Of a stretch of 64,000 bases of DNA, positions 2,105-63,005 are shown one piece after another. The notes under the pieces were generated by a model that did no database searches, was not told the DNA's origin, and saw only the letters and a program-made list of their open reading frames with translations. Within the stretch, counting starts at the first letter, position 1. Each line of letters opens with the position of its first letter. The DNA is from Nanobdellota archaeon (GTDB lineage Archaea; Nanobdellota; Nanobdellia; Pacearchaeales; GW2011-AR1): contig JADFRY010000001.1 in NCBI GenBank assembly GCA_022561055.1, positions 57,025 through 121,024 on the forward strand. Direction: 5' to 3'. The translations under genes were made by a program, and so were the position numbers.

Positions 2105-2158
2105 GAGACTAGAATTATATAAAGATTGTTATGGGTAGAAGTAATGTTTATTAATATG

Positions 2159-2418
2159 TCAAGAATTGCTTTTTGTGTAAACTCCCTACTTTAGTTCCTG
2201 AGAGAATAAAAGCAATTCTTGAGCATGCTCAAGACACCAAGAATTCTGAAAATTGAATTCTTGGATGCGCTCAAGAATCTTTGATTCTTGACGACCAAAC
2301 ACGCCACCTATGTCAAGAATGCTCTAAAGATTTTGCATTCTTGAACACTATCAAGAATCTGAACATGTAAAGATTCTTGAAGCTTTAGTGGGGGGGTTCT
2401 TGACAATTAAAATTAATA
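2159..2418. repeat. array of five hairpins sharing stem TCAAGAAT/ATTCTTGA plus G7 string (intergenic, divergent promoter region)
   Basis: Inverted repeats 2159-2222, 2237-2264, 2271-2291 (TCAAGAATCTTTGATTCTTGA), 2313-2344, 2351-2390; GGGGGGG at 2400-2406 then TTCTTGACAATT. Confidence 0.8.
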
Positions 2419-5669: not shown

Positions 5670-6062
5670 TTATCTTTTTATTAATTTAAGGTTTGGTTTG
5701 AACATATCAAATTGTCTTTGTAAAATCATTAGCTCTTCTTTTCTGGCAAATTCAGAGATTTGTTCTGACATTCTTTGAATAAATTCTTTCATTTTAATAT
5801 TTTCTTCTTTTAATTTTAGTATTTCTTTTTTCATTTCTTGCATTTCTCTGAAAGTACTCTCGCGCTCTTCAACTAAGTTTTGTCCAATTAGAAGAGTTCT
5901 GTCTTTCAAGAGTCTTTGCTTCTCTTCAATATCTCTCAATCTTGTGTTTGGGTCTGAGAAATATTGTTGGCTGGCAGGGTATTCTTCTGGCATGGTTATC
6001 ATAGGTGAAAGGAGTTTATAAGATTTCCGAGAAAATCTTAAGCCTTCACTTGTAGAGGACAA
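5670..6062 (-). CDS. coiled-coil protein (130 aa), translationally coupled to 4822..5667
   Basis: Stop at 5670 three nt from downstream start 5667; heptad-rich sequence. Confidence 0.4.
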   Translation of the reverse strand: MSSTSEGLRFSRKSYKLLSPMITMPEEYPASQQYFSDPNTRLRDIEEKQRLLKDRTLLIGQNLVEERESTFREMQEMKKEILKLKEENIKMKEFIQRMSEQISEFARKEELMILQRQFDMFKPNLKLIKR

Positions 6063-6086
6063 GCTTCAGGTTAAAATAGTTTTGTA

Positions 6087-6893
6087 TTACTTGTAGTTTG
6101 TTTTCTTTTTAAATAAATATTCTACGAAGAAGTAAAAAGAAAAAATTCCAAAGCCAAAGGGGATATATCCTAAATAACCGAATAAAGGCATTTCAAAAAT
6201 ATGAAGAAAGTTAATAAACGGTATAGTATAAATCCATTTCACACTAGCCCAAAAATTCCAAAATTCCCATAGAAAGCCAAGAGTGAGGGATGAGATAATA
6301 AGATAAATTATAGATTTTTGTCTTGTTTTTAACATATAAATTATACTCGGTTGTTTATTAGCATAATTTATCGGGTCAAGAATAAAAAACATAAAAATCC
6401 ATATTAAAGGAAAAAAGTATTTTGGCCATATTAGAGGTAATATAAACATTAATGTGCCAAGAATAATAAAGATAAGAAATGTATTTTTAGTTATTTTATC
6501 TTTCGGCGTAGCTTTTTTAAAATTGATATTGAATAATTTGAGTGTCACAAAAAATGCAGGAATAACTGTTGCGAAAGAGATAAATGCGAACAAATCTCCG
6601 TAAGGACCGAAAAATTCTGTTCCGATATAATGCCAATTATTTACTCTAAGATTAACATATTCAAAGATTTTCCAAAACGGAGCAGAAATAATAAACATTC
6701 CAATTAACATCGGCAGATTATTTTTAATAAGGGATTTTCCTTTTATTTTATAAGCCAGAGAATCTATAAATAAAATATATCCAAGCCAAATAATAGGAAA
6801 ATAGAATTTTTCAAATGGCTGTATTTTTAGAAAAAAATTTACTTCGGAGAATATTATTAATAATAATCCAATTATTCCATAGATTTGTATCAT
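6087..6893 (-). CDS. polytopic membrane protein (8 predicted TM, Cys-free)
   Basis: Highly hydrophobic 268 aa, Trp/Phe-rich; no catalytic motif recognised. Confidence 0.4.
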   Translation of the reverse strand: MIQIYGIIGLLLIIFSEVNFFLKIQPFEKFYFPIIWLGYILFIDSLAYKIKGKSLIKNNLPMLIGMFIISAPFWKIFEYVNLRVNNWHYIGTEFFGPYGDLFAFISFATVIPAFFVTLKLFNINFKKATPKDKITKNTFLIFIILGTLMFILPLIWPKYFFPLIWIFMFFILDPINYANKQPSIIYMLKTRQKSIIYLIISSLTLGFLWEFWNFWASVKWIYTIPFINFLHIFEMPLFGYLGYIPFGFGIFSFYFFVEYLFKKKTNYK

Positions 6894-16839: not shown

Positions 16840-17299
16840 AAGAGGCCATATACCGACAATAATGCTTTTTTTTGGAGCTTTGATTTTGGTAATTGTAACT
16901 TTGTTTTCTTTTACTAACGTGAAAAATGAATTAGGAGGAGAGTCAGAGGATTTTAATATTTTAGTTCAGGAGATTGACTTCAAGAAGAAATATATTTCTG
17001 CTGTTTTTGAAAAGATAGTTGAGGAAGCAGTCGAGAGTACAGATAAATTAAAATTTGAGGAAAGTTTTAGTGTGACTTTTGAAAAAATAAGTGATAGAAG
17101 GGATCCGAAGGATGGCAGTTTTGGTAATTTTTTTGGCAGAATAAGAAACGAGAAATATACTATAAATAAGGAAAATGGGATTTATACTTTAACTATAGAA
17201 GATGTTTTTGTTAGCTCTAATGTCGAAAAGAATGAAATGAAAAGAACTTTTCCTCTGTCAATTAGATTTAATAAAGAAGGACTGATACAGAGGAATTGA
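16832..17299 (+). CDS. pilin-like protein (class III signal peptide)
   Basis: Start moved to MNKRGH|IPTIMLFFGALILVIVTLF. Confidence 0.5.
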   Translation: MNKRGHIPTIMLFFGALILVIVTLFSFTNVKNELGGESEDFNILVQEIDFKKKYISAVFEKIVEEAVESTDKLKFEESFSVTFEKISDRRDPKDGSFGNFFGRIRNEKYTINKENGIYTLTIEDVFVSSNVEKNEMKRTFPLSIRFNKEGLIQRN

Positions 17300-17333
17300 T
17301 TTTTGGTTGTTATCAATTCTCTGTCCTTCAACT

Positions 17334-17392
17334 TCAAGAATGCTGACAATTGCATTCTTGACAGCCGTCAAGAATCTTTGATTCTTGAGGGG
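17334..17392. repeat. two TCAAGAAT-stem hairpins followed by GGGG-TCCAAACAAACACGC
   Basis: TCAAGAATGC-TGACAATT-GCATTCTTGA (17334-17361) and TCAAGAATCTTTGATTCTTGA (17368-17388, identical to 2271-2291). Confidence 0.8.
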
Positions 17393-17459
17393 TCCAAACA
17401 AACACGCAAGAACTTTGAGGTTTCATAAGATTTATAAATAAGGGGAGTTTGTTTAGTAT

Positions 17460-18089
17460 ATGTTTGAAAAGAGGTTGAATAAGAAAGGGCAGGAAGGTTT
17501 GACTCTGACCACTTTATTGTTGATAGTTTTAGGAATTGTCGTAGTTGTTGTCATAATTTTGGGAGCGACAGGTATATTTGGAGATATTTTTGGTAAGAGA
17601 GAAGCGTTTCCTAAAGCTTTAGAGGCAGTTACGCAATCGTGTAAACTTGCAGCACAGGTAAGTTTAATTGCAGATTATTGTTATGAGTTTAAGAAAATTA
17701 GCGATAATGAGTATATTAATTGTGAAGATCCGAGGGTTCAGAGTAGTTTGAGTGAGCAAGGGATTATAGTTGGGTTTAGTTGTGAACCTAGTCTTACGAA
17801 GGACGCAAAGAAAGGAGTCTGTTTGGATTTTAGTGCTGCTAAGCAGAAAGAGGTAAGGGTTGGTGGAAGATTCTGTTCTGACATTATAGGAAATGTTAAG
17901 TGTGATGATATTGCTATAGAGGTTCCCAATGATAATCCTAAAACGGATTCACAGTGGAGAGTGCAGGGAGCTTGCATAAAGTTAGGGCCTTCAGATTTAA
18001 ACAAATATGATGATGTAACTTATTTAGTTACTGATTTTACTGGTAGATCCAATGAAAATGATGTTTGTTGTAAGGTTACAGAACTTTAA
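17460..18089 (+). CDS. pilin-like protein (class III signal peptide), Cys-rich C-domain
   Basis: MFEKRLNKKGQ|EGLTLTTLLLIVLGIVVVVVIIL. Confidence 0.6.
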   Translation: MFEKRLNKKGQEGLTLTTLLLIVLGIVVVVVIILGATGIFGDIFGKREAFPKALEAVTQSCKLAAQVSLIADYCYEFKKISDNEYINCEDPRVQSSLSEQGIIVGFSCEPSLTKDAKKGVCLDFSAAKQKEVRVGGRFCSDIIGNVKCDDIAIEVPNDNPKTDSQWRVQGACIKLGPSDLNKYDDVTYLVTDFTGRSNENDVCCKVTEL

Positions 18090-19206: not shown

Positions 19207-19378
19207 TTACCCACCCAACCCGCCCTTTGCTATCATAATATATCCCTTACTATCATATACATCCCTTATTATCACAATACACATTTTGTTATCGCTATTA
19301 TCACAATATTTAGAATGGAGTTATGTAATTAATAGAGGAAGATTTAATATAGAAATTTAATATAGAATAATATAAAAT

Positions 19379-19990
19379 TTAAGGTATTTTTCTTTTTAGT
19401 TTTATTATTTTGGATTTTTCGGTTTTATTTTTTTTAATTTTGATAATTTCTAGTTTTTTCTCTTCTTTTAATTTTTGTAATACTTCTTTTAATTCTTGCT
19501 CATTTGCTTCGTGTCTTGGGGAATTTATGTTAAGAGGTTCGTCGTAAACAGGAATTATATTTATTATTACCTCGTTGAATTTGGATTCTGTTTGGATTTC
19601 TGTGTTTTTTGCTTTTAGTTTTGATATTATTTTTTTAGAAATTTGTTTTGCTAATGTGAAAGCTTGCTCTGGAATTTGGTTTGTGTTTTTGGCTGGTTTT
19701 TTTGGAATAATTATTGTGTGACCTTTTGATATTGGTCTTATATCGAGAACAGCAATTGCGTCGTTATTTTCGTCAATTTTTTTTGAAGGTATATTCCCTT
19801 TTATAATTAGTCTGAAGACTTTTGCATTCTGCATTTGTTTTTGCTGTTGTTTCAACATTAGTTCTAATGCTTCCGCAGACATCGAATCTATTTGTTTTTC
19901 GGCTTGTTGACGTTGTTCTAGAGGAAGATGTTGGATTTGCTCAGAAAGCTGTTTTTTTAGTTCTTCGATTTGGGTGGGTGTGAGTGGCAT
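19379..19990 (-). CDS. HIT-like domain protein with N-terminal coiled-coil/Gln-rich region
   Basis: 'DAIAVLDIRPISKGHTIIIPKK' matches HIT fold substrate region; histidine triad itself degenerate. Confidence 0.35.
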   Translation of the reverse strand: MPLTPTQIEELKKQLSEQIQHLPLEQRQQAEKQIDSMSAEALELMLKQQQKQMQNAKVFRLIIKGNIPSKKIDENNDAIAVLDIRPISKGHTIIIPKKPAKNTNQIPEQAFTLAKQISKKIISKLKAKNTEIQTESKFNEVIINIIPVYDEPLNINSPRHEANEQELKEVLQKLKEEKKLEIIKIKKNKTEKSKIIKLKRKIP

Positions 19991-20059
19991 TTTTAACCAA
20001 AAGCTTTCTTCCCATTTGTATTCGTTATCATTTTTAAAATACTCTCATCCAAAACTATA

Positions 20060-20140
20060 ACTTTGGAAAACCTCAAGAACTTTTAGTTCTTGGGGCCCAG
20101 AAAACTGATAAGTTTTCTGGGTTTGTAGGAGTCAAACCTA
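20060..20140. repeat. twin-hairpin element, copy 1 (paralog of 58343-58425)
   Basis: CTCAAGAAC-TTTTA-GTTCTTGGGG (20074-20092) and CCCAGAAAACT-GATA-AGTTTTCTGGG (20096-20121) then GGAGTCAAACC. Confidence 0.75.
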
Positions 20141-22957: not shown

Positions 22958-23082
22958 TGTCCCCACGGAGAATTGAACTCCGGTCTTAACCTATTCGCGA
23001 GTTCACTTCTTATGGTAGAGTTCATTACTAAAATGAGCTCCCTCACCGCAAGGTTATGTTCTATCCACTAAACTATGGGGAC
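22958..23082 (-). tRNA. tRNA-Arg (anticodon GCG) with ~53-nt intron at 37/38
   Basis: GTCCCCATAGTTTAGTGGATAGAACA-TAACC-TTGCGG..[intron]..A-GGTTA-AGAC-CGGAGTTCAATTCTCCG-TGGGGAC-A; acceptor and T arm canonical. Confidence 0.75.
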
Positions 23083-40274: not shown

Positions 40275-40349
40275 GGACTTATTTAATGCAATAGATGACG
40301 CTCTAAATCTTCTTAGTAGGTCCCTCTAACAAGATTTTCAATCTTGATA

Positions 40350-40449
40350 AGCCTGCAGAGGGAGTTGAACCCCCGACCTACTGCTCTCTTTTGAAGCTGA
40401 ATTTTGCTTTCAGTACAAGGCAGCCGCTCTACCACTGAGCTATGCAGGC
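40350..40449 (-). tRNA. tRNA-Thr (anticodon TGT) with 28-nt intron
   Basis: GCCTGCA-TA-GCTC-AGTGGTA-GAGC-G-GCTGC-CTTGTA[intron CTGAAAGCAAAATTCAGCTTCAAAAGAG]A-GCAGT..GGGGG-TTCAACT-CCCTC-TGCAGGC-T. Confidence 0.75.
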
Positions 40450-41714: not shown

Positions 41715-43736
41715 ATGAATAAACAAGCAAAGAATGCGTTGTTGGGTGTTTTGATATTTGGAGTAACTTTATCTATTTTATTTTTGATGAGTTTTGTTTT
41801 AGCTGATTTTGCTAGTTGGTCAGCTGTTGCAGACGAAGGAAATATTACAACATTTAATGAAGATACACCTACTCTTTTAAACTTCACTGTAAATAATACA
41901 GGCACAGCCCACAATATTACATCGGTTAATATTACTCTTCCCACTAGTAGTTTGTCATTCAGCGATGGTTTTTTAATGAATCTTATTGCAACAGGTAATG
42001 TGCATTTAATAGTTAACACTTCATTTGATGTTTCAACTGCAAGTGCAAATTGGTCAAATAATACTAATGAGGGTTTTGGGGACCTTATTCCAAATTTAAC
42101 AAGTGCGGAATTCCAAATTAATATTTCTGGCACAGCTCCGGGTAAATATAATATTAGCGTTAAGATAACAGATGATGCTGGCGCCCAAACAGAGCGTAAT
42201 TTAACTATTCATGTAAATGACACAACTACACCATATTCAGTTACTTTTATGCCAACAAGTCCTGCTCAAACTGCAAATCTTTCAGTGAGAGAGGTTACAA
42301 TTAATGTTTCAGCGAATGATACGCACAGCGGGATTGGATCATTTAATATATCTTTATATCTTACAAATGAAAGTTCTACTGCTAATGGTGCAGCAAATTC
42401 AAGCATAATACATTCTGGAGGAGCTTTAAATGATACAGGGTATGTAAATTTCTCTGGGTCTCATTTAGTAGATGGGTTTTATATAATTAATATAACGAGT
42501 ATCAATGATAATCCTGATCTTATAAATTTAGGAACCAATAACACAAATTCTACAGGAGTTCAAAGGAATATAACTATAGATGCGACTCCTCCAACTACTG
42601 TTATTTTTAACTCTGACACAGATTCTGGAAATTTCTCAAAAAGAGAAGTTATAATTAATGCTTCTGCTAATGCAACTTACACAGGTATAGATACATTCAA
42701 CATATCCTTATACCTAACTAATGGAAGCAGTGTTGCAAATACAAGCATGGTAGAAGCTAATCATGCTCTTAACGCTTCAGGATATGTGAACTTCTCGGGA
42801 AGCCATTTAGTAGATGGGTTTTATTTGATAAATGTAACAGGAATTAATGATACTGCAAATAATGTTAATGTAACAGGAGTTCAACTAAATATCACAATAG
42901 ATACAGTAGCCCCATCAATTACTTTAGCTAAATCAAGCAGTTCTGATAAAAATAAACTAGTTATAGATATTGCAATAACTGATTCAACTAGCGGGGTTAA
43001 TGGAATAGCCTGTACTGCAACTGGAGGAGGCACAGGAAACATAGCTATTGGAGGGGGTTCTGACACCAGCCAGACAGCTACTCAAGAAGGGTTAAGCTGT
43101 AGTAGTTCTAATGTTTATACGATAAAATGTAAAGACCACGCTGGAAATACAGGAAGCAAAGAAGGAACATTTAGTACGGATAGTTGCAGTGGTGGTGGAA
43201 GTCCTGGCGGTAGCGGACCTGGCCCTGGAGGCTCTGAGTGGATAACTACTTTTATTGAAGATGATGAACCACTTGAGACAAGAGGAAGTATTACTAAAGA
43301 ATTAGCTGAAAGACATAGAGTTAAGATTAATGTGGTTGGAGTAGTACATTATATAGGTATTATAGCCGATGGATTAACTGGAACTAGTGCAACAATACAA
43401 GTTTCATCTAGTCATGAGCAAGAATCAACATTAAATATTGGAGAAACAGCAAAGGTTGATGTAAGTGATCCTATTGATAACGTGTATGACTTAAGTATTA
43501 CATTAAACTCAATTGAGAGTAATAAAGCATCTGTTACTGTTTTACCACTACAAGAATCATATCAAGCAGGAGAGCCATCGATAACACCATCTCCGCCAGA
43601 GGAGGAAGAAGAGATTGTTCCTGGAGAATTAGCTGGAGCAGCTAGAAGCTTGGCTTGGCTATGGATCTTAATCGTAGTTATTGGGATAGTAGTTGTAGTT
43701 TGGGTTGTTGTTAGAAAGAGGCAAAAAGCTGGATAA
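41715..43736 (+). CDS. surface (S-layer-like) glycoprotein paralog 1: signal peptide, N-x-S/T-rich, C-terminal TM anchor
   Basis: Signal MNKQAKNALLGVLIFGVTLSILFLMSFVLA; >40 NxS/T sequons; C-terminal 'LAWLWILIVVIGIVVVVWVVVRKRQ'. Confidence 0.6.
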   Translation: MNKQAKNALLGVLIFGVTLSILFLMSFVLADFASWSAVADEGNITTFNEDTPTLLNFTVNNTGTAHNITSVNITLPTSSLSFSDGFLMNLIATGNVHLIVNTSFDVSTASANWSNNTNEGFGDLIPNLTSAEFQINISGTAPGKYNISVKITDDAGAQTERNLTIHVNDTTTPYSVTFMPTSPAQTANLSVREVTINVSANDTHSGIGSFNISLYLTNESSTANGAANSSIIHSGGALNDTGYVNFSGSHLVDGFYIINITSINDNPDLINLGTNNTNSTGVQRNITIDATPPTTVIFNSDTDSGNFSKREVIINASANATYTGIDTFNISLYLTNGSSVANTSMVEANHALNASGYVNFSGSHLVDGFYLINVTGINDTANNVNVTGVQLNITIDTVAPSITLAKSSSSDKNKLVIDIAITDSTSGVNGIACTATGGGTGNIAIGGGSDTSQTATQEGLSCSSSNVYTIKCKDHAGNTGSKEGTFSTDSCSGGGSPGGSGPGPGGSEWITTFIEDDEPLETRGSITKELAERHRVKINVVGVVHYIGIIADGLTGTSATIQVSSSHEQESTLNIGETAKVDVSDPIDNVYDLSITLNSIESNKASVTVLPLQESYQAGEPSITPSPPEEEEEIVPGELAGAARSLAWLWILIVVIGIVVVVWVVVRKRQKAG

Positions 43737-43939
43737 GAGTTTTATTAATATATTAAAATACCAATAGATAAATTGGATTTGGAACAACAAGAATCAAAAA
43801 CTTTTTGGAAATATAAAGATTGTATTGCTGCATAATGGAGTAAAGAAAGATTTATAAATAAAAGATTTCTAATTACTATTATAAACATTAGGAATAAAAG
43901 AGGATCAAACGATTGATGATACATACAAAAAAATTAGTG

Positions 43940-45649
43940 ATGAATAAACAAGCAAAGAATGCGTTGTTGGGTGTTTTGATATTTGGAGTAACTTTATCTA
44001 TTTTATTTTTGATGAGTTTTGTTTTAGCTGTTCATCAAGTTTCCTTTGAGGATTGGAGAGCAGATGTAGATATTTCCGCTTTCGGCATAGATGAAGATAC
44101 TTATGTAGTGATTAATGTAACAGTTAATGATACGGACACTGGCTCTTTGGCCAACATAACGCAGGTAAACATCACTTTCCCTGCCGGGTTTATAATCGCT
44201 TCAACTTTTGACCTTAATTCAAATAATACTGATGCCGTAGCTGTAAATACTAAGACAGTTGGAATTAGTTTCACTAATACAACTCTTGGTGGAAGGTTTG
44301 TCTTTAGTTGGGAGAACCTTACTGGAGGAGTAATACAGAATTCAACTAGCTTAACTCACTTTTTGTTTAACGTGACCTCTGCTAAACCTGGCAAGTTTAA
44401 CATTACTGTTAGAACACTGAATTTCTCGACTTTCATAGAGACTAACCTTACTATTGTAATCAATGATACAACTATTCCAGCTAACAAAACATTTGAAAGT
44501 GCTCGTTCGTTTGGTGCAGGCTCTAACAATTCTCTAAATCACATATCTATTAACCTTAGTGTTGGAGATAATGCTTTTGCAGATACTGTGAGGTTCTTCT
44601 TGTGGAACTCTACTAATGATGTTATAAATCAAACTAATATTACTGTTGATGGGAGAGGAAGATTTGCTTGGATTAACATTTCCACAGTATCAGACAACAG
44701 TTCTCAAGGTATTAGTGACGGCACTTATAGAATAAATGCAACTGCAAACGACACTACCGGAAATGACAATGTAACTAGTGTGAACGGCGTTTCTAGAACA
44801 ATAATTATAGATACAGTAGCCCCAGAAATTACTTTAACTAAATCAAGCAGTTCTGATAAGAATAAACTAGTTATAGATATTGCAATAACTGATTCAACTA
44901 GCGGGGTTAATGGAATAGCCTGTACTGCAACTGGAGGAGGCACAGGAAACATAGCTATTGGAGGGGGTTCTGACACCAGCCAGACAGCTACTCAAGAAGG
45001 GTTAAGCTGTAGTAGTTCTAATGTTTATACGATAAAATGTAAAGACCACGCTGGAAATACAGGAAGCAAAGAAGGAACATTTAGTACGGATAGTTGCAGT
45101 GGTGGTGGAAGTCCTGGCGGTAGCGGACCTGGCCCTGGAGGCTCTCAGTGGATAACTACTTTTATTGAAGATGATGAACCACTTGAGACAAGAGGAAGTA
45201 TTACTAAAGAATTAGCTGAAAGACATAGAGTTAAGATTAATGTGGTTGGAGTAGTACATTATGTAGGTATTCTAGCTGATGGATTAACTGGAACTAGTGT
45301 AACAATACAAGTTTCATCTAGTCACGAGCAAGAATCAACATTAAATATTGGAGAAACAGCAAAGGTTGATGTAAGTGATCCTATTGATAACGTATATGAC
45401 TTAAGTGTTACATTAAACTCAATTGAGAGTAATAAAGCATCTATTACTATTTTACCAATACAAGAATCATATACTCTTGAAGAGGAAGAAGCAGCACCAG
45501 AAGAGGTGGAAGAAGGACCTCCTGCCCTTGGTCCTGAAGAATTAGCTGCTGCACCTAGAAGCTTGGCTTGGCTATGGATATTAATCGTAGTTATTGGGAT
45601 AGTAGTTGTAGTTTGGGTTGTTGTTAGAAAGAGGCAAGTAGCTAAATAA
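43940..45649 (+). CDS. surface glycoprotein paralog 2 (identical signal peptide and near-identical C-terminal 290 aa to paralog 1)
   Basis: Start moved to ATG 43940 (MNKQAKN..); C-terminal block from TVAP.ITL.KSSSSDKNKLVIDIAITD onward ~95% identical. Confidence 0.6.
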   Translation: MNKQAKNALLGVLIFGVTLSILFLMSFVLAVHQVSFEDWRADVDISAFGIDEDTYVVINVTVNDTDTGSLANITQVNITFPAGFIIASTFDLNSNNTDAVAVNTKTVGISFTNTTLGGRFVFSWENLTGGVIQNSTSLTHFLFNVTSAKPGKFNITVRTLNFSTFIETNLTIVINDTTIPANKTFESARSFGAGSNNSLNHISINLSVGDNAFADTVRFFLWNSTNDVINQTNITVDGRGRFAWINISTVSDNSSQGISDGTYRINATANDTTGNDNVTSVNGVSRTIIIDTVAPEITLTKSSSSDKNKLVIDIAITDSTSGVNGIACTATGGGTGNIAIGGGSDTSQTATQEGLSCSSSNVYTIKCKDHAGNTGSKEGTFSTDSCSGGGSPGGSGPGPGGSQWITTFIEDDEPLETRGSITKELAERHRVKINVVGVVHYVGILADGLTGTSVTIQVSSSHEQESTLNIGETAKVDVSDPIDNVYDLSVTLNSIESNKASITILPIQESYTLEEEEAAPEEVEEGPPALGPEELAAAPRSLAWLWILIVVIGIVVVVWVVVRKRQVAK

Positions 45650-46675: not shown

Positions 46676-48565
46676 ATGGGGGTAAGAAGAATGATTAGAT
46701 CGTTTTGGAGTAGGAAAGGACAAATTAGTTTTTTTATAATTCTTGCTATTGTAATAGTTGCGGCAGTAGTCATCTTCTTTGCTTTGAGGACAAATATTTT
46801 TGTTACAGGGATTGACCCTGAGTTTGTGCCTATTTATAATTTGTATGGGGAATGTGTGAAGCAGGAAACTGAAAATGCTCTGAATTTGTTAGGGACCCAA
46901 GGAGGCAAGATTGATGTTGGAGAGTATGTTCCTGGAAGTGAGTATGCTCCTTTTTCATCGCATTTGAATTTCTTAGGTTTTCCTATACCTTACTGGTATT
47001 ATGTTTCTGGAAACAATTTAATTAAAGAAAATGTTCCTTCAAGAAATGATATGGAGCAAGAGATTTCAGAGTTTTTAGAAGAGAGAATAAACGAGTGTGA
47101 TTTTAGTAATTTTTATGAGCAGGGATTTTTTATTGAGTTAGATGAAAGTCCAAGAGTTAAAACTAAAATAGAAGATAATAAGGTTAGTGTTGATGTTAGT
47201 GCTAGTGTTGTTGTTTTCAGAGAAGATAAAAGCGCGAGGAAAAATTTGCACCGAGTTGTGGTAGAAAGCAAGATTGGTAAGTTTCACAAAATTGCAAGAG
47301 AGATTTATGACAAGGAAAAAAACGAGGCGTTTTTGGAAGAGTATGCTGTCGATGTTTTAAGACTTTACGCTCCCGTTGACGGTGTTGAAGTTCAGTGCAG
47401 TCCGAAAATTTGGAAGACGCAAGAGGTTGTTAATAATTTACAAGAAGGATTAGAAGCAAACATTAGGGCATTAAAACTTAAAGGAAAATATTATAATTTA
47501 AATGAGAAAGAGGATGAGTATTTTGTAATTGACCATAATGTTGACGAGTCAGTTAATTTTTTATATTTAAGAAATTGGCCAAGTAAAATTGAAATTACTC
47601 CTGCTAATGAGGAATTAATGATTGCAGAACCAATTGGAAACCAACAAGGTTTAGGAATTTTAGGTTTTTGTTATGTTCCTTATCATTTTGTTTACGACGT
47701 AAGCTTTCCTGTTTTGATACAAATACATGATGGATTAGAAATTTTTCAGTTCCCTATTTCTGTGATTATTGATAATAATCTGCCTAGAGAAGCAGAACTT
47801 TTGAGTTTTGCAGAGGAAGAGGATATTGATATATGTAGTTTTAAGGAAGGGAATGTGCAGGTTTATACTTTTGATAGTAATTTGAATCCTGTCGAGGCTG
47901 AAATAAGTTATAAGTGCTTTGATAGTATTTGCAGGCTTGGAGAAACAGAGAGCTCTGGGGGAGATGCTGTTCTTAATACAAATATTCCTTTATGTGTTAA
48001 TGGTTATATAATTGCCAAAGCCGAGGGATTTGTAGAGAAGAAGCAGTTGTTTTCATCCAATTCTGAAATAATTGCCGACGTTATCCTTGATAGAGAATAT
48101 GAAGTTGAGGTTGAATTAAGAGTCGCTGGGAAAGAGAAAAAAAATACAACTGCGATTGTTCATTTTAGCGGAGAAGACGGAACAGCAAGTGTAGTTTTGC
48201 CTGAAAATAATAAAGTTAAGTTGAAAGAAGGGCTATATGATATAGATGTTTTTGTTTATGGAGATTCGAGTGTTGTGATTCCAAGTTCTAGGAAAAGGCA
48301 ATGTTTTGAAGTGTCAAAAGGAGGTTTGTTTAGCTTTTTTGGGGCAACTAAAGAAGAGTGTATTGATATTGAAATCCCTGAAGTAAGAATAGATTACGCG
48401 TTGACAGGAGGAGGAAAAACAAATACTTATATTCTGGAATCTGAGTTGAAAAAAGGCAGAGTGGTTATAGATGTTAGTGAATTGCCTAAACCAAATTCAC
48501 TTGAACAGTTGCAATATAATTACGAAATATTTAATAGTCTAGGAGTTGAGATGGTGTTTATATGA
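46676..48565 (+). CDS. large extracellular protein with pilin-like class III signal (SRKGQ|ISFFIILAIVIV)
   Basis: 629 aa; N-terminal KGQ + hydrophobic helix; ATGA overlap with downstream giant ORF. Confidence 0.5.
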   Translation: MGVRRMIRSFWSRKGQISFFIILAIVIVAAVVIFFALRTNIFVTGIDPEFVPIYNLYGECVKQETENALNLLGTQGGKIDVGEYVPGSEYAPFSSHLNFLGFPIPYWYYVSGNNLIKENVPSRNDMEQEISEFLEERINECDFSNFYEQGFFIELDESPRVKTKIEDNKVSVDVSASVVVFREDKSARKNLHRVVVESKIGKFHKIAREIYDKEKNEAFLEEYAVDVLRLYAPVDGVEVQCSPKIWKTQEVVNNLQEGLEANIRALKLKGKYYNLNEKEDEYFVIDHNVDESVNFLYLRNWPSKIEITPANEELMIAEPIGNQQGLGILGFCYVPYHFVYDVSFPVLIQIHDGLEIFQFPISVIIDNNLPREAELLSFAEEEDIDICSFKEGNVQVYTFDSNLNPVEAEISYKCFDSICRLGETESSGGDAVLNTNIPLCVNGYIIAKAEGFVEKKQLFSSNSEIIADVILDREYEVEVELRVAGKEKKNTTAIVHFSGEDGTASVVLPENNKVKLKEGLYDIDVFVYGDSSVVIPSSRKRQCFEVSKGGLFSFFGATKEECIDIEIPEVRIDYALTGGGKTNTYILESELKKGRVVIDVSELPKPNSLEQLQYNYEIFNSLGVEMVFI

Positions 48566-51500
48566 TAAAGAAAAGGTTTGGAGAATTGTTTTTGGTTGTT
48601 GGAATTTTGATTTTTATAATTGCAGGTTTGGAATTTAGTGTTGCGCAGGTTGGTTCAGGTTATTCTTATTCTGATAAGGAATTTTCTGGGAGTAATAGAG
48701 GCAGTGCAAGTTTTGTCAATTATGGTGCACCTCCTGATTTTCAGAAATATTACTCTTCAGAGGGCAGACTCAGTACTTATTTTCCAGTTTTAGCCGATAG
48801 AGATAGTTGTTTTGCGAGGCAGGATATTTTATTACAAGTTGCTCCTGTCGGTTGTCAGCCAGCTGTTGTAAGAAGCGATTTATTAGCAGAGCAAAATGTT
48901 CCGGTATTTTGTCAGCTTGATGCTATAAAAGTGAATCCTTTGTTAGATATTAAGCAGATAAGGAGTATAAGGTTTAGGGGAGATTACCCTAAGGAAGTTG
49001 TCGGAGTTGGTTTTCATCCTGCGAGAGCTGCTTTGAGGACAAGAGATAAACTTTTAGGCAGTCCATTAATAAATAATATTGGATATGTCGTTGTTGTTTT
49101 GAAGAGAAACCCAAATGAAGAAGAATTGCCGAATTTTATTAATTTTACCTTAAGTGCGAGACTCGATTATTATTCTGGAAATGCTTTAGGAATTGGAAAA
49201 AGTGAGTTTTTGCTTAGGGAAGTTACAGACGCTGAATGGAAGTCTGAAAGGAATAGACAAAGTTTCTTTAAAGGACAATATTTTGCGAGGCTTATCGATG
49301 CAGACCCTAATTTTGCAACTATTGCTATTTATCATGGAGAAAGGAAAATTTCGACAACAAGAGTTCAAAGGGGAAAGTCTTCAGAAGATATTTATGTGCC
49401 TGGCCAATATTGCCAGGTAGCTTTGAAGCTTTCTTATGATGGTTTTGTTTCTGCAGACAAGATTGCTAAGATTCGGATTGATGATGAGATCATTGATGTT
49501 TATCGAGGAAGCAGGTTTCTGAATGGCAAATGTCAAGTAAAAAGTATAAATGGGGATAGTACGAATGGAACCGTAGAAATTTCTTGTGGCGGTTCAAGAT
49601 CATTTACTTTAGGATTACAAGCAAGATTCTTGAAAGTTGGAGACCTTGTTAATTACACGAAAGGAGATAGAGATTTATGGGAGATTACAGAAATTAATGA
49701 AAAGGAGAGACAATATAATATAACAAAATATTCTAATGAAGGTGTAATAGAAAGTAAGGTTGTCAATATTAGTGATGTTTTTCCAGAGGTTTCTGATGTT
49801 TTATTTGAGGCAAGATATACTGGCGAGACAAAAGAATATTTCAAAAAGGCAATTGATAGTTATGAGGAAGTAGTCGATAGTTATGCGCGTGAAAAAAAAT
49901 CTGAGGCACGTGATATTGAAGGAACACCAACTTATGGAGAGCTAGCTTTGGGAAAAGCAATTGAGCTTGCGTCAGATTTTAAGAAAGAAGCAACCGAAGC
50001 CCGTTTAATAGAGAAATTTATTGATGTTTATCCTGACGCCGATAATAGTTCTTTTTATACTAGCAAATTAAATGAATTATATACGAAAGACAGCAGCTTG
50101 GCAGGAACAGTTATCGATATAGACAATGACTTTAAGACAATTAAGTTGCTGGAGATTAGGATTCCTGCGAAAAGGTCGAGTGCCGAGTTTGTTTTAGGTG
50201 TTGAAAGAATAACTTTGCAGAGTGGAGAGAGTCATTCATTTATTAGTATAGGAGATAAAAATGGCTTAGTCATTATTGAAAAGGTAGAGTTTGATAAGGT
50301 TAAGGTAACTTCTTATTGTGGGGAAGATGATAGAGGTAATAGAGAGTGGAGTAAATCAATCAGAATAGGAGAGAGTGAAACTTCTTGCGGGGTTAGTTTG
50401 AGATTGGTCGATGTTAATCTTGAAGAGTTTGCAAGAGTAAAAATTAGCCCTGTCGTTAGAACGACTAGCGAGACTGAGTTTACGGTCGGTGTTGGAATCG
50501 AGAAAAGAGCAATCAAGCTTAGTCCTGACAAGACAAAAGAAAAGATTGAGAATTTGAACAAGAGCATTAAGAAGTGGGAGTCAATTTCAAATAATTTAGG
50601 TGATGTTGTCAGAGGTTTGAAAGGAGCTTGCTTTGCAACTGCCGGAGTTTTAACTGTGAAGAATTTCTTTACAGGATTTAGTGGAGAATCTTTGGCAAGA
50701 CAGAAAGTTATGCGAGGTTCTGACGGCTGGACTGAATGGTGTAAAGATAGACTGAAACCAAGAGGACAGTATGATACTTTAACTCAATGTTATAATGATA
50801 AAGCTTCACAAATAAAAAAAGATGTTGATGCATATGCGAAAGCAATCTCTCAATCAAATAAAAAGATGAAAGCAATTGAGGATGATAGTATAATTTCTAG
50901 TGGAGGATTTTTTGGAGGAGATAGTATTGATATCGATGAAGCTAAGAAAGATTTAGTTAAAGTATTAGAGAGTGAATGTTCGAGTGTTAGTACAGGACTG
51001 GGCGGAGAAAATGGTGATATCGGAAAGTTAATTGCTGGTGTAAAACTAGAAGATTTAGGATATCAACAATTAAGAGACATGTATTTTAATTGTCTTGTCG
51101 TTAAAGGAGGCCAGCTTTCTAGTGGTGGTGTAGGATTGAACAGGGCTAATGAAGACTTGAAGTTAATCGGTGAAAGGATTTTGGAGAGGAAAGAAACTTC
51201 ACAAGTTAGAGAAGGTCTCGGTGAATCATTAAAAAGAACTGGTTTAGAAGGTTTTAGAATTGTGTCTTATGGAGGGGAAAATGCAATAAGAGGCGAGTAT
51301 TATGGGGGGATTTTGAAACCAGGAGATATAAATAATGTTGATATTAATAATAATACACCTGCTCAAGTTATAACTTATGACGGGGATCCTTATCTTATAA
51401 TTTTACAAAAAACTAGTGTGGAGAATTATAGACCAGAGAAGATTTATGCATTGACGCGAGAGAGTAATTATAAAGAGGCCACTCTTGTCGAGGGCGCGCT

Positions 51501-53937
51501 TGCTTCAAAGATTAGGAGAATCCATATTTATAGAAAAATCGATGCTGGTTCTTATAATAATAGATTTGCCAAGGGCGAGGATGTTGTGAGGTATTATGAG
51601 AGAGAGCCATATAAAGGGACGCCGGCAATTGTGCCTATAGATGTTGATGAGGGATGGTATGTTGCAACAAAACAAACATTGCCTGGTTTCGGAAAAATAA
51701 AAGCATTTGAATCGTCAGGAAGACCGGTTAGTTTCTGGGTTTGTAATATCATGCAAGATAAAAAAGTAGGATTTTTCTCTCCTGGTTTTGGCGATGATAA
51801 ATGTGTGCAGTTTAATATGAATACAGGACAGCCTTTGGATAAATTCCCTGGTTTGAGCGAGCGAAAGACAAGACAGTTAGTCGATAGAGCAGTTCAGGCA
51901 TTAGAGGATGCAGCCAAAGAGACAGGGAAGAAAAAGGGAGAGCTTGTTAATATTCTTGGGAGACGTCTTAGTGTTGGAGGTTTTGCTGCGAGTATTCCTG
52001 GAACGCAATGCCAAGATTTTATGAGTCCTGAAGATTGTTTGAAGTTATTTAATGTTTGCGACCCTGTGATATGCCCAAGTTCGAGATGCAATTTGGGTGG
52101 TACATATTATGTTTCAGATGTTATTCAATCTGGCGTCATAGGGAGTGTTTTGTTATGCTTGCCTAATTTTAAAGAAGGTATACTAGTGCCTGTTTGTTTG
52201 ACAGGAATTAAAGCTGGAATCGATGGTTATTTGTCAATTTTGAAATCTCATCAGCAATGTTTGCAAGAGAATTTGGAAACCGGAAGAACAATAGGGATTT
52301 GTGATTTAGTAACTTCTGTTTATACTTGTGAGTTTTTCTGGAGACAGGCGGCGCCAGTCGCAAATGTTTTGTTACCGAAAGCTGTTGAGTTTCTTTACAC
52401 AGGCGGACAAGGACAGGCGAGAGGCGGAGGAGAGTATTTAACTGTTCAGACTGCCTGGGAAAATGCGCAAGACTCTGTTAATTTCTTTACACAAGAATAT
52501 GCAGCTAATTCTTTAGAAGCGTTTAGAGTCAGGTCTATTGCAGAAGCAGGCACAACTTTGTGTAGGGCTTTTGTTTCTGTTAAAGGCCCTAAGTCGTTTG
52601 AAACACTAATTGAGCCAGATTCGCCGCCGCAGTTCCATGCATGGTTTAGTTCAATACCATTTAGCGACGCGACTGTTCCTGCCACGGCTCAGTATAAAGT
52701 ATTTTATCATATTTTTTCAGGGGATGATTCTGGAGTTGCATTTAGCGTTTATTTGAAAGACCCTCCTGAAACTTCATTCTATTACACGACTCCGACGTTA
52801 ATTGTTGCTTCAGGGTTTGCACCGAGAGGACAGTTTGCTACAGAGACGAGAGACTTTACTGCGCCGGAAGGTTATAAGCAGTTATGCGTGAGGATAAATA
52901 ACAAGGAAGAGTGCGGGTTTAAACAAGTATCTTCTAGTTTCGCTCTTAATATTATTAGAGATGAATTTGTGAGTGATGAAATTGAAAGGGGAGATATAAC
53001 AAGAGAGAGTGAATGTATTTCAGGCAAATTGAATGTTGCGGCTTTGTTAAACCCAAATATCCAAGAGGCAGCACAAGAAGCAATTGACCCTGCCGTTTAT
53101 AATAGAGGAGTAGTTAGGATTTGTGCGACTGATAATCCAGGAAAGGGAACAGAGCCAGAGAGGTTTGTGGATGCTGGTTATTGCGATGACCAGAGAGTAA
53201 GATGCTGGGTCGATATGAATAGTGTTGAAAGAGCTCTTACAGTTGATAATATTGGAGAAAAAGAAAAAACTATAGAAAAATTAGAAGCAAGGCAGAAAGA
53301 GCTTTTGCAAGAAGGAAAGGAAAAAGAGTTTTATAGTGAGACGAAAGCTAGTGAGGTTAGTGAAAGGTTAAGAAGAGAGAAACTTTTCAGAGTCAGCAAG
53401 GATAATGTCGAAGGTAGAATTGATGAGATTGATAATGATTTAGAAAAAGTATTTTTTAATTATCAGAGGGCAGAGTTTCTTTTGTTGAAAGGAGATGTTT
53501 ATGCTAAGGTTGCTAAGAATTTATTGACAAAATTGCAGGGAGTTTTGGAGATAGATCCTTCTGGGGGAGTCGAGGATAAAAAAGAAAAAGAAGAAAATAT
53601 AGAATTGCTTTTTTCTGAGAGATTTAGTCTTAGAAATAGTGAAGATGATTTAATTATACGTTATAAAAAGTATCAGGATAGTACATTAGATAATACAGAG
53701 CTATTTGTTCCTAAGGATACTAAAGTTTTGGTTTATAAGACTAAGAATAATGTTGTTGCAGATTTGAGTAGAACAATTGATTTTTCTGGAAAAGGGGAGT
53801 CTGTCATAGCTGTGAAAGAAAATTCGATGTATTTACGGATTTTGGATGATTTTGATTTAGTTAGGTTAGACAATGCGAAGATTTTATTTAGCGAAGATGG
53901 TAGTCTTAGCCTAAAGTTTGATGGTTCTGGTAACTAA
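48562..53937 (+). CDS. giant extracellular/cell-surface protein (1791 aa), N-terminal signal-anchor, Cys-rich segment, C-terminal coiled coil
   Basis: Uninterrupted 5.4-kb ORF; N-terminal 'LFLVVGILIFIIAGLEF'; 'CDPVICPSSRCNLGG' Cys cluster. Confidence 0.6.
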   Translation: MIKKRFGELFLVVGILIFIIAGLEFSVAQVGSGYSYSDKEFSGSNRGSASFVNYGAPPDFQKYYSSEGRLSTYFPVLADRDSCFARQDILLQVAPVGCQPAVVRSDLLAEQNVPVFCQLDAIKVNPLLDIKQIRSIRFRGDYPKEVVGVGFHPARAALRTRDKLLGSPLINNIGYVVVVLKRNPNEEELPNFINFTLSARLDYYSGNALGIGKSEFLLREVTDAEWKSERNRQSFFKGQYFARLIDADPNFATIAIYHGERKISTTRVQRGKSSEDIYVPGQYCQVALKLSYDGFVSADKIAKIRIDDEIIDVYRGSRFLNGKCQVKSINGDSTNGTVEISCGGSRSFTLGLQARFLKVGDLVNYTKGDRDLWEITEINEKERQYNITKYSNEGVIESKVVNISDVFPEVSDVLFEARYTGETKEYFKKAIDSYEEVVDSYAREKKSEARDIEGTPTYGELALGKAIELASDFKKEATEARLIEKFIDVYPDADNSSFYTSKLNELYTKDSSLAGTVIDIDNDFKTIKLLEIRIPAKRSSAEFVLGVERITLQSGESHSFISIGDKNGLVIIEKVEFDKVKVTSYCGEDDRGNREWSKSIRIGESETSCGVSLRLVDVNLEEFARVKISPVVRTTSETEFTVGVGIEKRAIKLSPDKTKEKIENLNKSIKKWESISNNLGDVVRGLKGACFATAGVLTVKNFFTGFSGESLARQKVMRGSDGWTEWCKDRLKPRGQYDTLTQCYNDKASQIKKDVDAYAKAISQSNKKMKAIEDDSIISSGGFFGGDSIDIDEAKKDLVKVLESECSSVSTGLGGENGDIGKLIAGVKLEDLGYQQLRDMYFNCLVVKGGQLSSGGVGLNRANEDLKLIGERILERKETSQVREGLGESLKRTGLEGFRIVSYGGENAIRGEYYGGILKPGDINNVDINNNTPAQVITYDGDPYLIILQKTSVENYRPEKIYALTRESNYKEATLVEGALASKIRRIHIYRKIDAGSYNNRFAKGEDVVRYYEREPYKGTPAIVPIDVDEGWYVATKQTLPGFGKIKAFESSGRPVSFWVCNIMQDKKVGFFSPGFGDDKCVQFNMNTGQPLDKFPGLSERKTRQLVDRAVQALEDAAKETGKKKGELVNILGRRLSVGGFAASIPGTQCQDFMSPEDCLKLFNVCDPVICPSSRCNLGGTYYVSDVIQSGVIGSVLLCLPNFKEGILVPVCLTGIKAGIDGYLSILKSHQQCLQENLETGRTIGICDLVTSVYTCEFFWRQAAPVANVLLPKAVEFLYTGGQGQARGGGEYLTVQTAWENAQDSVNFFTQEYAANSLEAFRVRSIAEAGTTLCRAFVSVKGPKSFETLIEPDSPPQFHAWFSSIPFSDATVPATAQYKVFYHIFSGDDSGVAFSVYLKDPPETSFYYTTPTLIVASGFAPRGQFATETRDFTAPEGYKQLCVRINNKEECGFKQVSSSFALNIIRDEFVSDEIERGDITRESECISGKLNVAALLNPNIQEAAQEAIDPAVYNRGVVRICATDNPGKGTEPERFVDAGYCDDQRVRCWVDMNSVERALTVDNIGEKEKTIEKLEARQKELLQEGKEKEFYSETKASEVSERLRREKLFRVSKDNVEGRIDEIDNDLEKVFFNYQRAEFLLLKGDVYAKVAKNLLTKLQGVLEIDPSGGVEDKKEKEENIELLFSERFSLRNSEDDLIIRYKKYQDSTLDNTELFVPKDTKVLVYKTKNNVVADLSRTIDFSGKGESVIAVKENSMYLRILDDFDLVRLDNAKILFSEDGSLSLKFDGSGN

Positions 53938-54931: not shown

Positions 54932-55128
54932 ATAATCACACGATTATTTATTTCAAAGATCGTACCGCATTACCCCCCATAGTTAAAAGCGGTCTGAGTG
55001 CGGGGACTAGGATCCTAAATACAAACTTTTTAGAAAAAAGTTTCTATGAGTTCAAAAACTATACTTGGAACTTCGTTCTTATTAGCAAGCTACAAAATAG
55101 TCCAGCAATATTGCTTTGCAATATTGAA

Positions 55129-58332: not shown

Positions 58333-58342
58333 TTTACAACCT

Positions 58343-58425
58343 TTCAAAAACCTCAAGAATTTTTAATTCTTGGGGCCCAGAAAACTTATTAGTTTTCTAG
58401 GGGTTCTAGGAGTCCAAACGGATCC
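58343..58425. repeat. twin-hairpin element, copy 2 (paralog of 20060-20140), immediately upstream of rps8e
   Basis: CTCAAGAAT-TTTTA-ATTCTTGGGG and CCCAGAAAACT-TATT-AGTTTTCTAGGGG then GGAGTCCAAAC. Confidence 0.75.
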
Positions 58426-62600: not shown

Positions 62601-62699
62601 GCTCCCGTAGCTCAGTCTGGATAGAGCAACAGACTTCTAATATTGTGCTTTGTAAAGGGAGAAATCTGTGGGTCGCAGGTTCAAATCCTGTCGGGGGCA
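62601..62699 (+). tRNA. tRNA-Arg (anticodon TCT) with ~25-nt intron
   Basis: GCTCCCG-TA-GCTC-AGTCTGGATA-GAGC-A-ACAGA-CTTCTA[intron]A-TCTGT..GCAGG-TTCAAAT-CCTGT-CGGGGGC-A. Confidence 0.75.
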
Positions 62700-62832: not shown

Positions 62833-63005
62833 TTTTCTAGATTCGAACAGTTTGGGGGGTTTGAATCATCAGAGAATTGAAGATTCTCTGAGCCTCTTCG
62901 TGCTCTCTGGGCGCTTTGGAGTCCCTGTAAAATACCATATTTCTAAACAGGAAAATGCTCTAAAATAGAATATTAGAAAAAGTCCGTTTAATCTATTTAA
63001 TCGCT

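Follow-up and report, generated by a model that had tools for sequence, protein, structure and literature searches.

Repeats built from short hairpins and dispersed between genes have been described in several systems. The REP/BIME elements of bacteria are small stem-loops outside genes, constant in the stem and variable in the loop, which occur in multiple copies in UTRs and spacers and form mosaic arrays with short linkers; REPs are usually species-specific and are associated with a Y1 transposase (RAYT), whose gene they typically flank. BOX elements of Streptococcus pneumoniae combine terminal and variable internal hairpin modules (boxA-boxB(n)-boxC) and, together with ERIC and Correia/NEMIS elements, are characterized by strong predicted secondary structure, intergenic dispersal, and the lack of coding capacity. 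MITEs are also non-coding and multi-copy, with terminal inverted repeats, target-site duplications, unique flanks, and presence or absence at orthologous sites. In organelles, repetitive hairpin elements, palindromic GC clusters, and double-hairpin elements are self-complementary modules that proliferate in intergenic and intronic DNA, show nesting, and exist as loop and orientation variants. As for archaea, a survey of prokaryotic MITEs places a Woesearchaeal genome among those with the highest archaeal MITE densities, 105 per Mb (PMC11602168).

We analysed a 64-kb stretch of archaeal DNA (34% GC; hereafter the window), in which several hairpins lie upstream of a pilin gene (locus B). Our results indicate that locus B is probably a copy of an interspersed repeat, modular in build and rich in hairpins, whose family is found in DPANN archaea of the Woesearchaeota/Pacearchaeota type; the copy was inserted in a lineage-specific manner, and the element would spread at the DNA level. 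No published description of this family was found in the searchable literature, and on the best reading it may be likened to REP/BIME, BOX, or MITE as a family of interspersed hairpin repeats.

The family shares with REP/BIME elements all the structural properties given above, including the clustering of extragenic palindromes: all copies in the window are intergenic, and arrays are present at 2151-2411 and in the related loci L006, L018, and L039 (loci from other genomes are given by L numbers). In contrast to REP/BIME elements, it has no GTAG/CGTC 5' tag (the flanks of 33 copies read ..RYGC before the initial TCA and CA/GY after the final TGA), its stems are AT-rich, its hosts are archaeal, and one identical hairpin is found across many species and orders. 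Neither a transposase nor a RAYT was found next to any copy examined, either in the 8-kb pieces from other genomes or in the 64-kb window. The modular build, predicted structure, and dispersal of BOX, ERIC, and Correia/NEMIS elements are shared as well, and the array at locus A of the window and that in L073 have Correia-like terminal inverted repeats (14 nt in locus A), whereas L012-type and Pacearchaeota units have none; the sequences are unrelated to those elements, and neither a TA nor any other target duplication was found. Where paralogous copies were aligned, their boundaries showed no consistent target-site duplication, and the flanks were AT-rich. With MITEs the family has in common the lack of coding sequence, a size of 50-640 nt, multiple copies with unique flanks, presence or absence at orthologous sites, and TG...CA-type inverted termini (TGTCAAGAA...TTCTTGACA) around several arrays, but internally the DPANN unit is made up of separate small hairpins set in an array and does not form a single long foldback. 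No related autonomous IS was seen in the fetched loci. The pattern used for an autonomous partner (TGTCAAG..CTTGACA, 0.7-2.5 kb apart) demanded TGTCAAGAAA/TGTCAAGGAA and was hence blind to the TGTCAAGAAT termini of the window, which makes this particular search uninformative. The organelle elements resemble the DPANN modules in all the respects named above but differ in hosts and sequences.

Locus B is composed of the following features.

17300..17415, no strand: whole element of locus B, about 115 nt of extra DNA from the TGA of the last minor-pilin-like gene (17297-17299) to the BRE/TATA of the pilin gene
17287..17324, no strand: hairpin B0, ACAGAGGAATTGAT / ATCAATTCTCTGT, with a 1-nt bulge
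17334..17361, no strand: hairpin B1, TCAAGAATGC-TGACAATT-GCATTCTTGA, with a 10-bp stem that is the same as that at 2313-2344
17368..17388, no strand: hairpin B2, the 21-mer TCAAGAATC-TTT-GATTCTTGA, extendable to CCG...GGG (17365-17391)
17389..17407, plus strand: flank block GGGGTCCAAACAAACACGC, common to 2292-2304 (CGACCAAACACGC), 58409-58419 (GGAGTCCAAAC), and the GGTCCAAAGCACGA blocks of Pacearchaeota units
17424..17459, plus strand: pilin promoter ..CATAAG-ATTTATAAATAA, about 20 nt, then the ATG; conserved, outside the element, and setting its right-hand limit

Hairpins B1 and B2, which the earlier note on this DNA had reported, lie 72-126 nt 5' of the ATG at 17460, and the 21-mer of B2 (TCAAGAATCTTTGATTCTTGA) is an exact match to 2271-2291 within the array positioned at about 2.2 kb (2151-2411; the "2.2-kb array" of that note refers to its position and not to its length). 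The note had also pointed to a parallel between the flanks of the two copies. This parallel was borne out: CCAA-N0-4-ACACGC occurs only twice in the 64 kb (0.14 expected), in both cases 3-5 nt past a copy of the 21-mer, and the two copies thus have a downstream flank in common. The flank block GGGGTCCAAACAAACACGC is a version of GGTCCAAAGCACGA. On the other hand, the TGACAATT string, which had been listed as a further feature common to both loci, is present in 3 copies against 4.2 expected, and its recurrence is a chance similarity. As a whole, locus B resembles locus D of the window (see below) minus the second hairpin (...ATTCTTGAGGGG followed by TCCAAAC). In hairpin B0, the upstream gene provides the 5' arm with its last four codons and stop codon, and an inverted copy of this arm inside the inserted DNA forms the 3' arm; this arrangement suggests a local inverted duplication by template switching.

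A pilin gene had been proposed at 17460, and its product is plausible as a type IV pilin of archaea, with a class III signal peptide (MFEKRLNKKG followed by QEGLTLTTLLLIV...). Six ORFs that share the N-terminal motif precede the gene; a prepilin peptidase gene (PF01478) comes next, and a T2SSE ATPase gene lies nearby, upstream. The TATA-like ATTTATAAATAA noticed earlier upstream of this gene is real and is conserved in the orthologues. The half-sites TCAAGAAT/ATTCTTGA of the hairpins are placed 43-97 nt upstream of it. As for whether the hairpins lie in the 5' UTR or upstream of the TATA, a question raised in the earlier note, the sequence places them 5' of the conserved TATA and therefore outside the pilin 5' UTR. 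The element at locus B is probably no part of the ancestral pilin promoter.

A search with the prepilin peptidase gave 45 metagenome loci for comparison. The gene order was syntenic in more than 20 of them (up174 orthologue, pilin, peptidase, HIT on the minus strand, EF-1beta on the minus strand, and OB-fold protein). In all loci covering the junction, the up174 stop codon is followed within 0-20 nt by ..AAG(G/A)TTTATAAATAA, and the pilin ATG comes about 20 nt later; the promoter motif and its spacing are shared by L037, L041, L042, L048, L053, L055, L063, L069, L070, and L080-L084. Between up174 and the pilin gene there are 22-65 nt in the relatives and 160 nt in the window, of which the promoter alone is common to both. 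The five contigs with the closest pilin homologues (L080-L084) have a short, hairpin-free gap like the other orthologues. Thus the same promoter is retained while the gaps are shorter by the hairpin-bearing DNA, and locus B is therefore an insertion of about 115 nt between the stop codon and the BRE/TATA; this insertion is defined at the level of the gap and is undated, since the nearest relatives have at most 66% pilin identity and offer no empty site at the nucleotide level. The earlier note had considered two origins for the shared sequences, namely a conserved regulatory module and common descent as a mobile or duplicated element. Comparison of the orthologous loci speaks against the former for the pilin gene, because about 20 syntenic orthologues keep the BRE/TATA directly after the stop codon, and none of them has hairpins at the pilin promoter.

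Locus C of the window, which lies directly 3' of the EF-1beta stop codon, gives a similar picture. The gap between EF-1beta and HIT is 147 nt in the window versus 5-70 nt in most orthologues (others hold extra genes), and by this comparison of gaps locus C is likewise an insertion. Relatives have arrays at other positions (L039, L073, L066, and L063). In L039, a run of about 640 nt with about 17 different short hairpins (5815-6450) occupies the peptidase-HIT spacer, where the gap is about 100 nt in 19 other loci. The terminus of the L039 array (..GGTGCATCG-T-run-GAT) is the same as that of Pacearchaeota units, and the ends of the L073 array are TGTCAAGAAC...AATTCTTGACA. The peptidase-HIT spacer of the window contains short tandem direct repeats at 19230-19281 (period 19, CTATCATAATACATCCCTTA, 2.7 copies) and at 19329-19382 (period 13, TTAATATAGAAAT, 4.3 copies).

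Other units of the family are present in the source genome at 2.2 kb, 20.07 kb, and 58.35 kb, and further hairpins are found beside tRNA genes.

2151..2411, no strand: locus A, 261-nt composite array of five hairpins with inverted termini TTAAT(A)TGTCAAGAA / TTCTTGACAATTAA; hairpins at 2159-2222, 2237-2264, 2271-2291 (the 21-mer), 2313-2344, and 2351-2380
20058..20137, no strand: locus C, two hairpins, 20071-20095 (CCTCAAGAAC..GTTCTTGGGG) and 20096-20121 (CCCAGAAAACT..AGTTTTCTGGG), then GGAGTCAAAC
58338..58420, no strand: locus D, paralogue of locus C, with hairpins at 58351-58375 and 58376-58402, then GGAGTCCAAAC
62869..62891, no strand: TCA...TGA-class hairpin TCAGAGAAT-TGAAG-ATTCTCTGA, about 35 nt past tRNA-Cys, with a G6 run before it and TTTGGAGTCC after it
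40329-40349: hairpin CAAGATT-GAAA-ATCTTG, adjoining the tRNA at 40350 on its 3' side and similar to the hairpin at 62869-62891
55106-55126: hairpin CAATATTGC-TTT-GCAATATTG, 3' of a tRNA gene

Locus A is located between two divergent promoters, outside both mRNAs, and its predicted folding is far more stable than that of shuffled sequences (z = -8.9 on the plus strand and -6.7 on the minus strand). It is 94% identical over 72 nt to L030 and L034 and 93% identical over 61 nt to L007, and the genes flanking the arrays in L007, L030, and L034 show no similarity to the neighbours of locus A. Loci C and D, which were absent from the earlier note, have in common a module of about 80 nt (CCTCAAGAAY-loop-RTTCTTGGGG, CCCAGAAAACT-loop-AGTTTTCT(A)GGG, and GGAGTC(C)AAAC), and a compensatory change of C-G to T-A distinguishes them. 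Locus D lies between the start of rpS8e (58333, minus strand) and the promoter of the Sm gene, and is probably within the 5' UTR of S8e. Perfect hairpins are thus found directly or shortly 3' of three tRNA genes in the window, and those after two of them belong to the TCA...TGA class. Rfam matches of 99-125 nt mark three tRNA genes at 22958-23082, 40350-40449, and 62601-62699 that ARAGORN missed; as these matches are longer than a tRNA, we read the genes as containing introns.

The exact 21-mer was found in 33 stretches of GTDB species-representative genomes, against 0.3-1.8 expected, with up to four copies per genome; these loci were ascertained by the 21-mer sequence itself, and the pieces of the other genomes are at most 11 kb long compared with 64 kb for the window. 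Thirty-one of the 33 stretches are from DPANN MAGs labelled Woesearchaeota, Pacearchaeota, or Nanoarchaeota, three of these carrying a Methanosarcinales label. Viral contigs gave no match to the 21-mer. The multi-copy dispersal in 31 DPANN genomes, the sharing of the 21-mer together with its flank, and the presence of two more loci in the window support the common descent proposed for the two copies noticed first.

In the loci found in this way, the 21-mer is nearly always one module among different hairpins in an array. The hairpins of an array all begin with TCA and end with TGA (TCAGAAAC, TCATAAATGC, TCAAGGAT, TCAAAGA, and others) and are joined by linkers of about 6 nt of the RYGC type; recurrent blocks are ATGTCAAGGAACTTGAC, AAACTCC...GGAGTT, and GCATCCAAAGCACGA...CATCGTGCTTTTGAT, and also GGTCCAAA..CACG. 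The base of the module stem is conserved (TCAAGAA.../...TTCTTGA, and relatives such as TCAGAAAC), whereas the inner stem and the loop vary. The modules are assembled in discrete units of 50-640 nt, with several units per genome at unrelated sites. In CAYWQI01, a unit of about 215 nt is present on four contigs with sharp boundaries and unrelated flanks, and one of the copies is without a block of 48 nt that comprises two hairpins. At least four units with the same termini and differing numbers of hairpin modules were found in the Pacearchaeote CAXNIJ01. In one Pacearchaeota genome (JAGVXD01), L008 and L026 hold the same unit of about 200 nt and differ only by a 47-nt indel of two hairpins and by loop inversions. 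Entire hairpin modules are thus gained or lost, and the loops of a unit can be inverted. In the case of L008 and L026, both TCA..TGA loops are flipped (ttt/aaa and tttgct/agcaaa), and the loop of a third hairpin is unchanged.

The neighbours of the arrays are unrelated housekeeping genes (among them those for MutS2-like, Kef, aIF5B, DnaG, and RPA-like proteins). In L033 the array is directly 3' of a tRNA gene, and in L021 (NYZR01000021, Pacearchaeota ARS50) it lies inside the intron of tRNA-Val (tRNA match 113-280). This intron of about 97 nt consists wholly of four hairpins of the TCA...TGA family, including the exact 21-mer, which is transcribed with an AAA loop.

It is unusual for a purely selfish repeat to retain exactly the same hairpin of 21 nt in lineages that have diverged so deeply, and this may point to a conserved function or to a conserved factor with which the hairpin interacts. 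Tentatively, the TCA...TGA modules may be the substrate of a protein conserved in Woesearchaeota and Pacearchaeota, either an enzyme or a binding protein, that is specific for hairpins, and would then represent a new class of archaeal mobile or regulatory elements; we regard this as possible though doubtful. Candidates for such a factor would be a single-strand transposase, a nuclease, or an RNA-binding factor. The arrays would grow by nesting of new hairpins into the loops of existing TCAAGAA stems, and individual loops would flip. Such a factor would explain why at least 31 lineages at the species level retain the exact hairpin of 21 nt while its surroundings are reshuffled.

Alternatively, the modules may be functional RNA structures, either UTR elements (5' or 3' stem-loops) with a role in transcript stability, termination, or insulation, or genes for small RNAs present in multiple copies, and their dispersal would then be due to selection for that function and not to selfish spread. 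Consistent with this, the predicted folding is very stable (z of -4 to -9), the 21-mer is strongly conserved, and hairpins occur directly after tRNAs and stop codons. With respect to the neighbouring gene, the 21-mer has a preferred orientation (22 of 29, P = 0.004, the loci not being independent), which suggests some strand-specific, possibly RNA-level, selection. A start codon on the same strand follows many copies at a distance of 30-100 nt, and the L012-type unit has a TATA-like box and a T-run at its end. However, both orientations with respect to transcription are found (antisense in L021 and L033 versus L003 and L011), locus A lies outside both neighbouring mRNAs, and the hairpins are absent from orthologous sites. 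The canonical hairpins at A and B lack a T-run, and the copies have no promoter at a fixed distance: when conserved promoter and terminator signals were looked for around the units, TATA-like strings occurred upstream at no fixed distance. Imperfect hairpins contain G-T (G-U) and A-C mismatches at similar frequencies (23 vs 25) and give no RNA-strand signal. Rfam gave only tRNAs, both in the window at gathering and permissive thresholds and in 18 array-bearing loci at gathering thresholds, so that no Rfam family corresponds to the modules. As the main explanation we consider functional RNA unlikely, but it overlaps with the insertion of a repeat element, since a mobile element can be domesticated. 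The orientation bias, the proximity to start codons, and the conservation of the 21-mer leave open a possible role at the RNA level or in protein binding.

Several known elements were also considered and rejected. An intrinsic terminator does not fit the hairpins, because no T-run follows B1, B2, or those of locus A, and because A and D are in divergent regions without a 3' end; a sigma-70/terminator scan returned only artefacts, i.e., alternative pairings between neighbouring arms. A CRISPR array and other Rfam RNAs (HEARO/omega RNAs and riboswitches) gave no covariance-model match, and inspection by eye for hammerhead, C/D-box, H/ACA, K-turn, and BHB motifs gave no consistent cores. A replication origin (ORB) at array A was dismissed because its modules recur at numerous unrelated loci and also within the intron of a tRNA gene. 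The loop orientation (TTT vs AAA) tracks neither local GC skew nor local AT skew (11/31 and 18/31). Strand asymmetry is strong and uniform across the whole window (1-64000), with all 8-kb bins showing a GC skew between +0.11 and +0.30 and with T > A, independently of gene orientation.

We examined the stem with a test anchored on the 6-mer arms CAAGAA/TTCTTG alone, using 20 non-redundant pairs at most 20 nt apart. The next inward bases were complementary in 17 of the 20 pairs (P = 1e-7), and at least 2 bp were formed in 13 of the 20 (P = 8e-11). At least eight inner-stem sequences are in use (tc/ga, ttc/gaa, tgc/gca, tct/aga, tac/gta, and others). Since the bases past the conserved TCAAGAA arms vary and yet remain complementary, hairpin formation itself is maintained. 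The spacing between the half-sites is also variable, from 3 to 34 nt, and variable spacing combined with a complementary inner stem is the mark of a single-strand structure or of a palindrome-generating process and not of a duplex operator. It is thus very unlikely that the palindromes are operators of a dimeric transcription factor acting on the pilin gene and on the genes at the other loci. The inverted, conserved, and promoter-proximal intergenic position of TCAAGAAT/ATTCTTGA would suit such a factor, but a spacer of 3-34 nt with complementary ends is needless for a protein that binds duplex DNA, the neighbouring genes have no common function, and some copies are in a tRNA intron or after tRNAs. 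The proposal had already been largely refuted by the lack of sites at about 20 orthologous pilin promoters.

The 8-mer TCAAGAAT occurs 19 times in the 64 kb against 6.8 +/- 2.3 expected, and the entire excess is in hairpins or inverted pairs; outside hairpins, the isolated 8-mer is at background (7 vs 6.8 expected). The earlier note had named a restriction or methylation hot-spot as an outcome that would overturn common descent, which does not apply here because the isolated arms are at background frequency. The same count bears on the proposal that the hairpins are sequences similar to DNA uptake signals (DUS) and are read by the adjacent type IV pilus machinery. Neisseria DUS often occur as inverted pairs, and the hairpins also offer a short conserved word in inverted intergenic pairs, common to related species and adjoining a pilus locus. 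Nevertheless, this is highly improbable, since single 8-mers are not enriched, the inner stem covaries, many modules use other words (TCAGAAAC and TCATAAATGC), and the position beside pilus genes is not conserved. A chance palindrome or a restriction/methylation hot-spot, for which nothing speaks beyond the AT-rich composition, has virtually no probability left and is already refuted by the seven occurrences of CAAGAAT-N0-30-ATTCTTG in the window against 0.09 expected, by the 31 DPANN genomes with the 21-mer against fewer than two expected, and by the shared flanks.

For the interspersed repeat that we favour, the element would spread or duplicate as DNA into permissive non-coding sites such as spacers, UTRs, and a tRNA intron. 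This could be brought about by an enzyme that acts in trans and recognises the conserved base of the stem, or by template switching driven by the hairpins. The latter would also account for the loop inversions, the indels of modules, and the inverted arm of B0 that copies the end of the adjacent gene. If locus B is transcribed, this would be only as part of the minor-pilin operon upstream of it, at the 3' tail. As a putative secondary effect, the stem-loops there could stabilise or protect the 3' end of this transcript or insulate it from the pilin promoter.

Elsewhere in the window, tandem paralogues at 41715-43736 and 43913-45649 are probable surface proteins in a cassette-like layout. Their N-terminal signal regions are identical, the C-terminal parts of about 280 residues are near-identical, and the middles are divergent (Ig-like, with a weak Big_3_3 match). 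The region at 48562-53937 is an ORF of 1791 aa without a Pfam match.

The hairpins of locus B should not be taken as pilin regulation. They belong to a modular family of hairpin repeats shared by the small, streamlined genomes of DPANN archaea, in which it occupies spacers, UTRs, and even tRNA introns and reaches up to 640 nt in one relative. Arrays of this kind can be mistaken in annotation for regulatory sites, small RNA genes, or origins. The same 21-nt hairpin is present in at least two named candidate phyla, Woesearchaeota and Pacearchaeota, as given by the genome labels. This pattern points to either a mobilisation machinery or a conserved host factor, and the 21-mer provides a sequence handle for finding either. 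The repeat element could also serve to mark strains for typing and to trace the exchange of DNA among uncultivated DPANN lineages.
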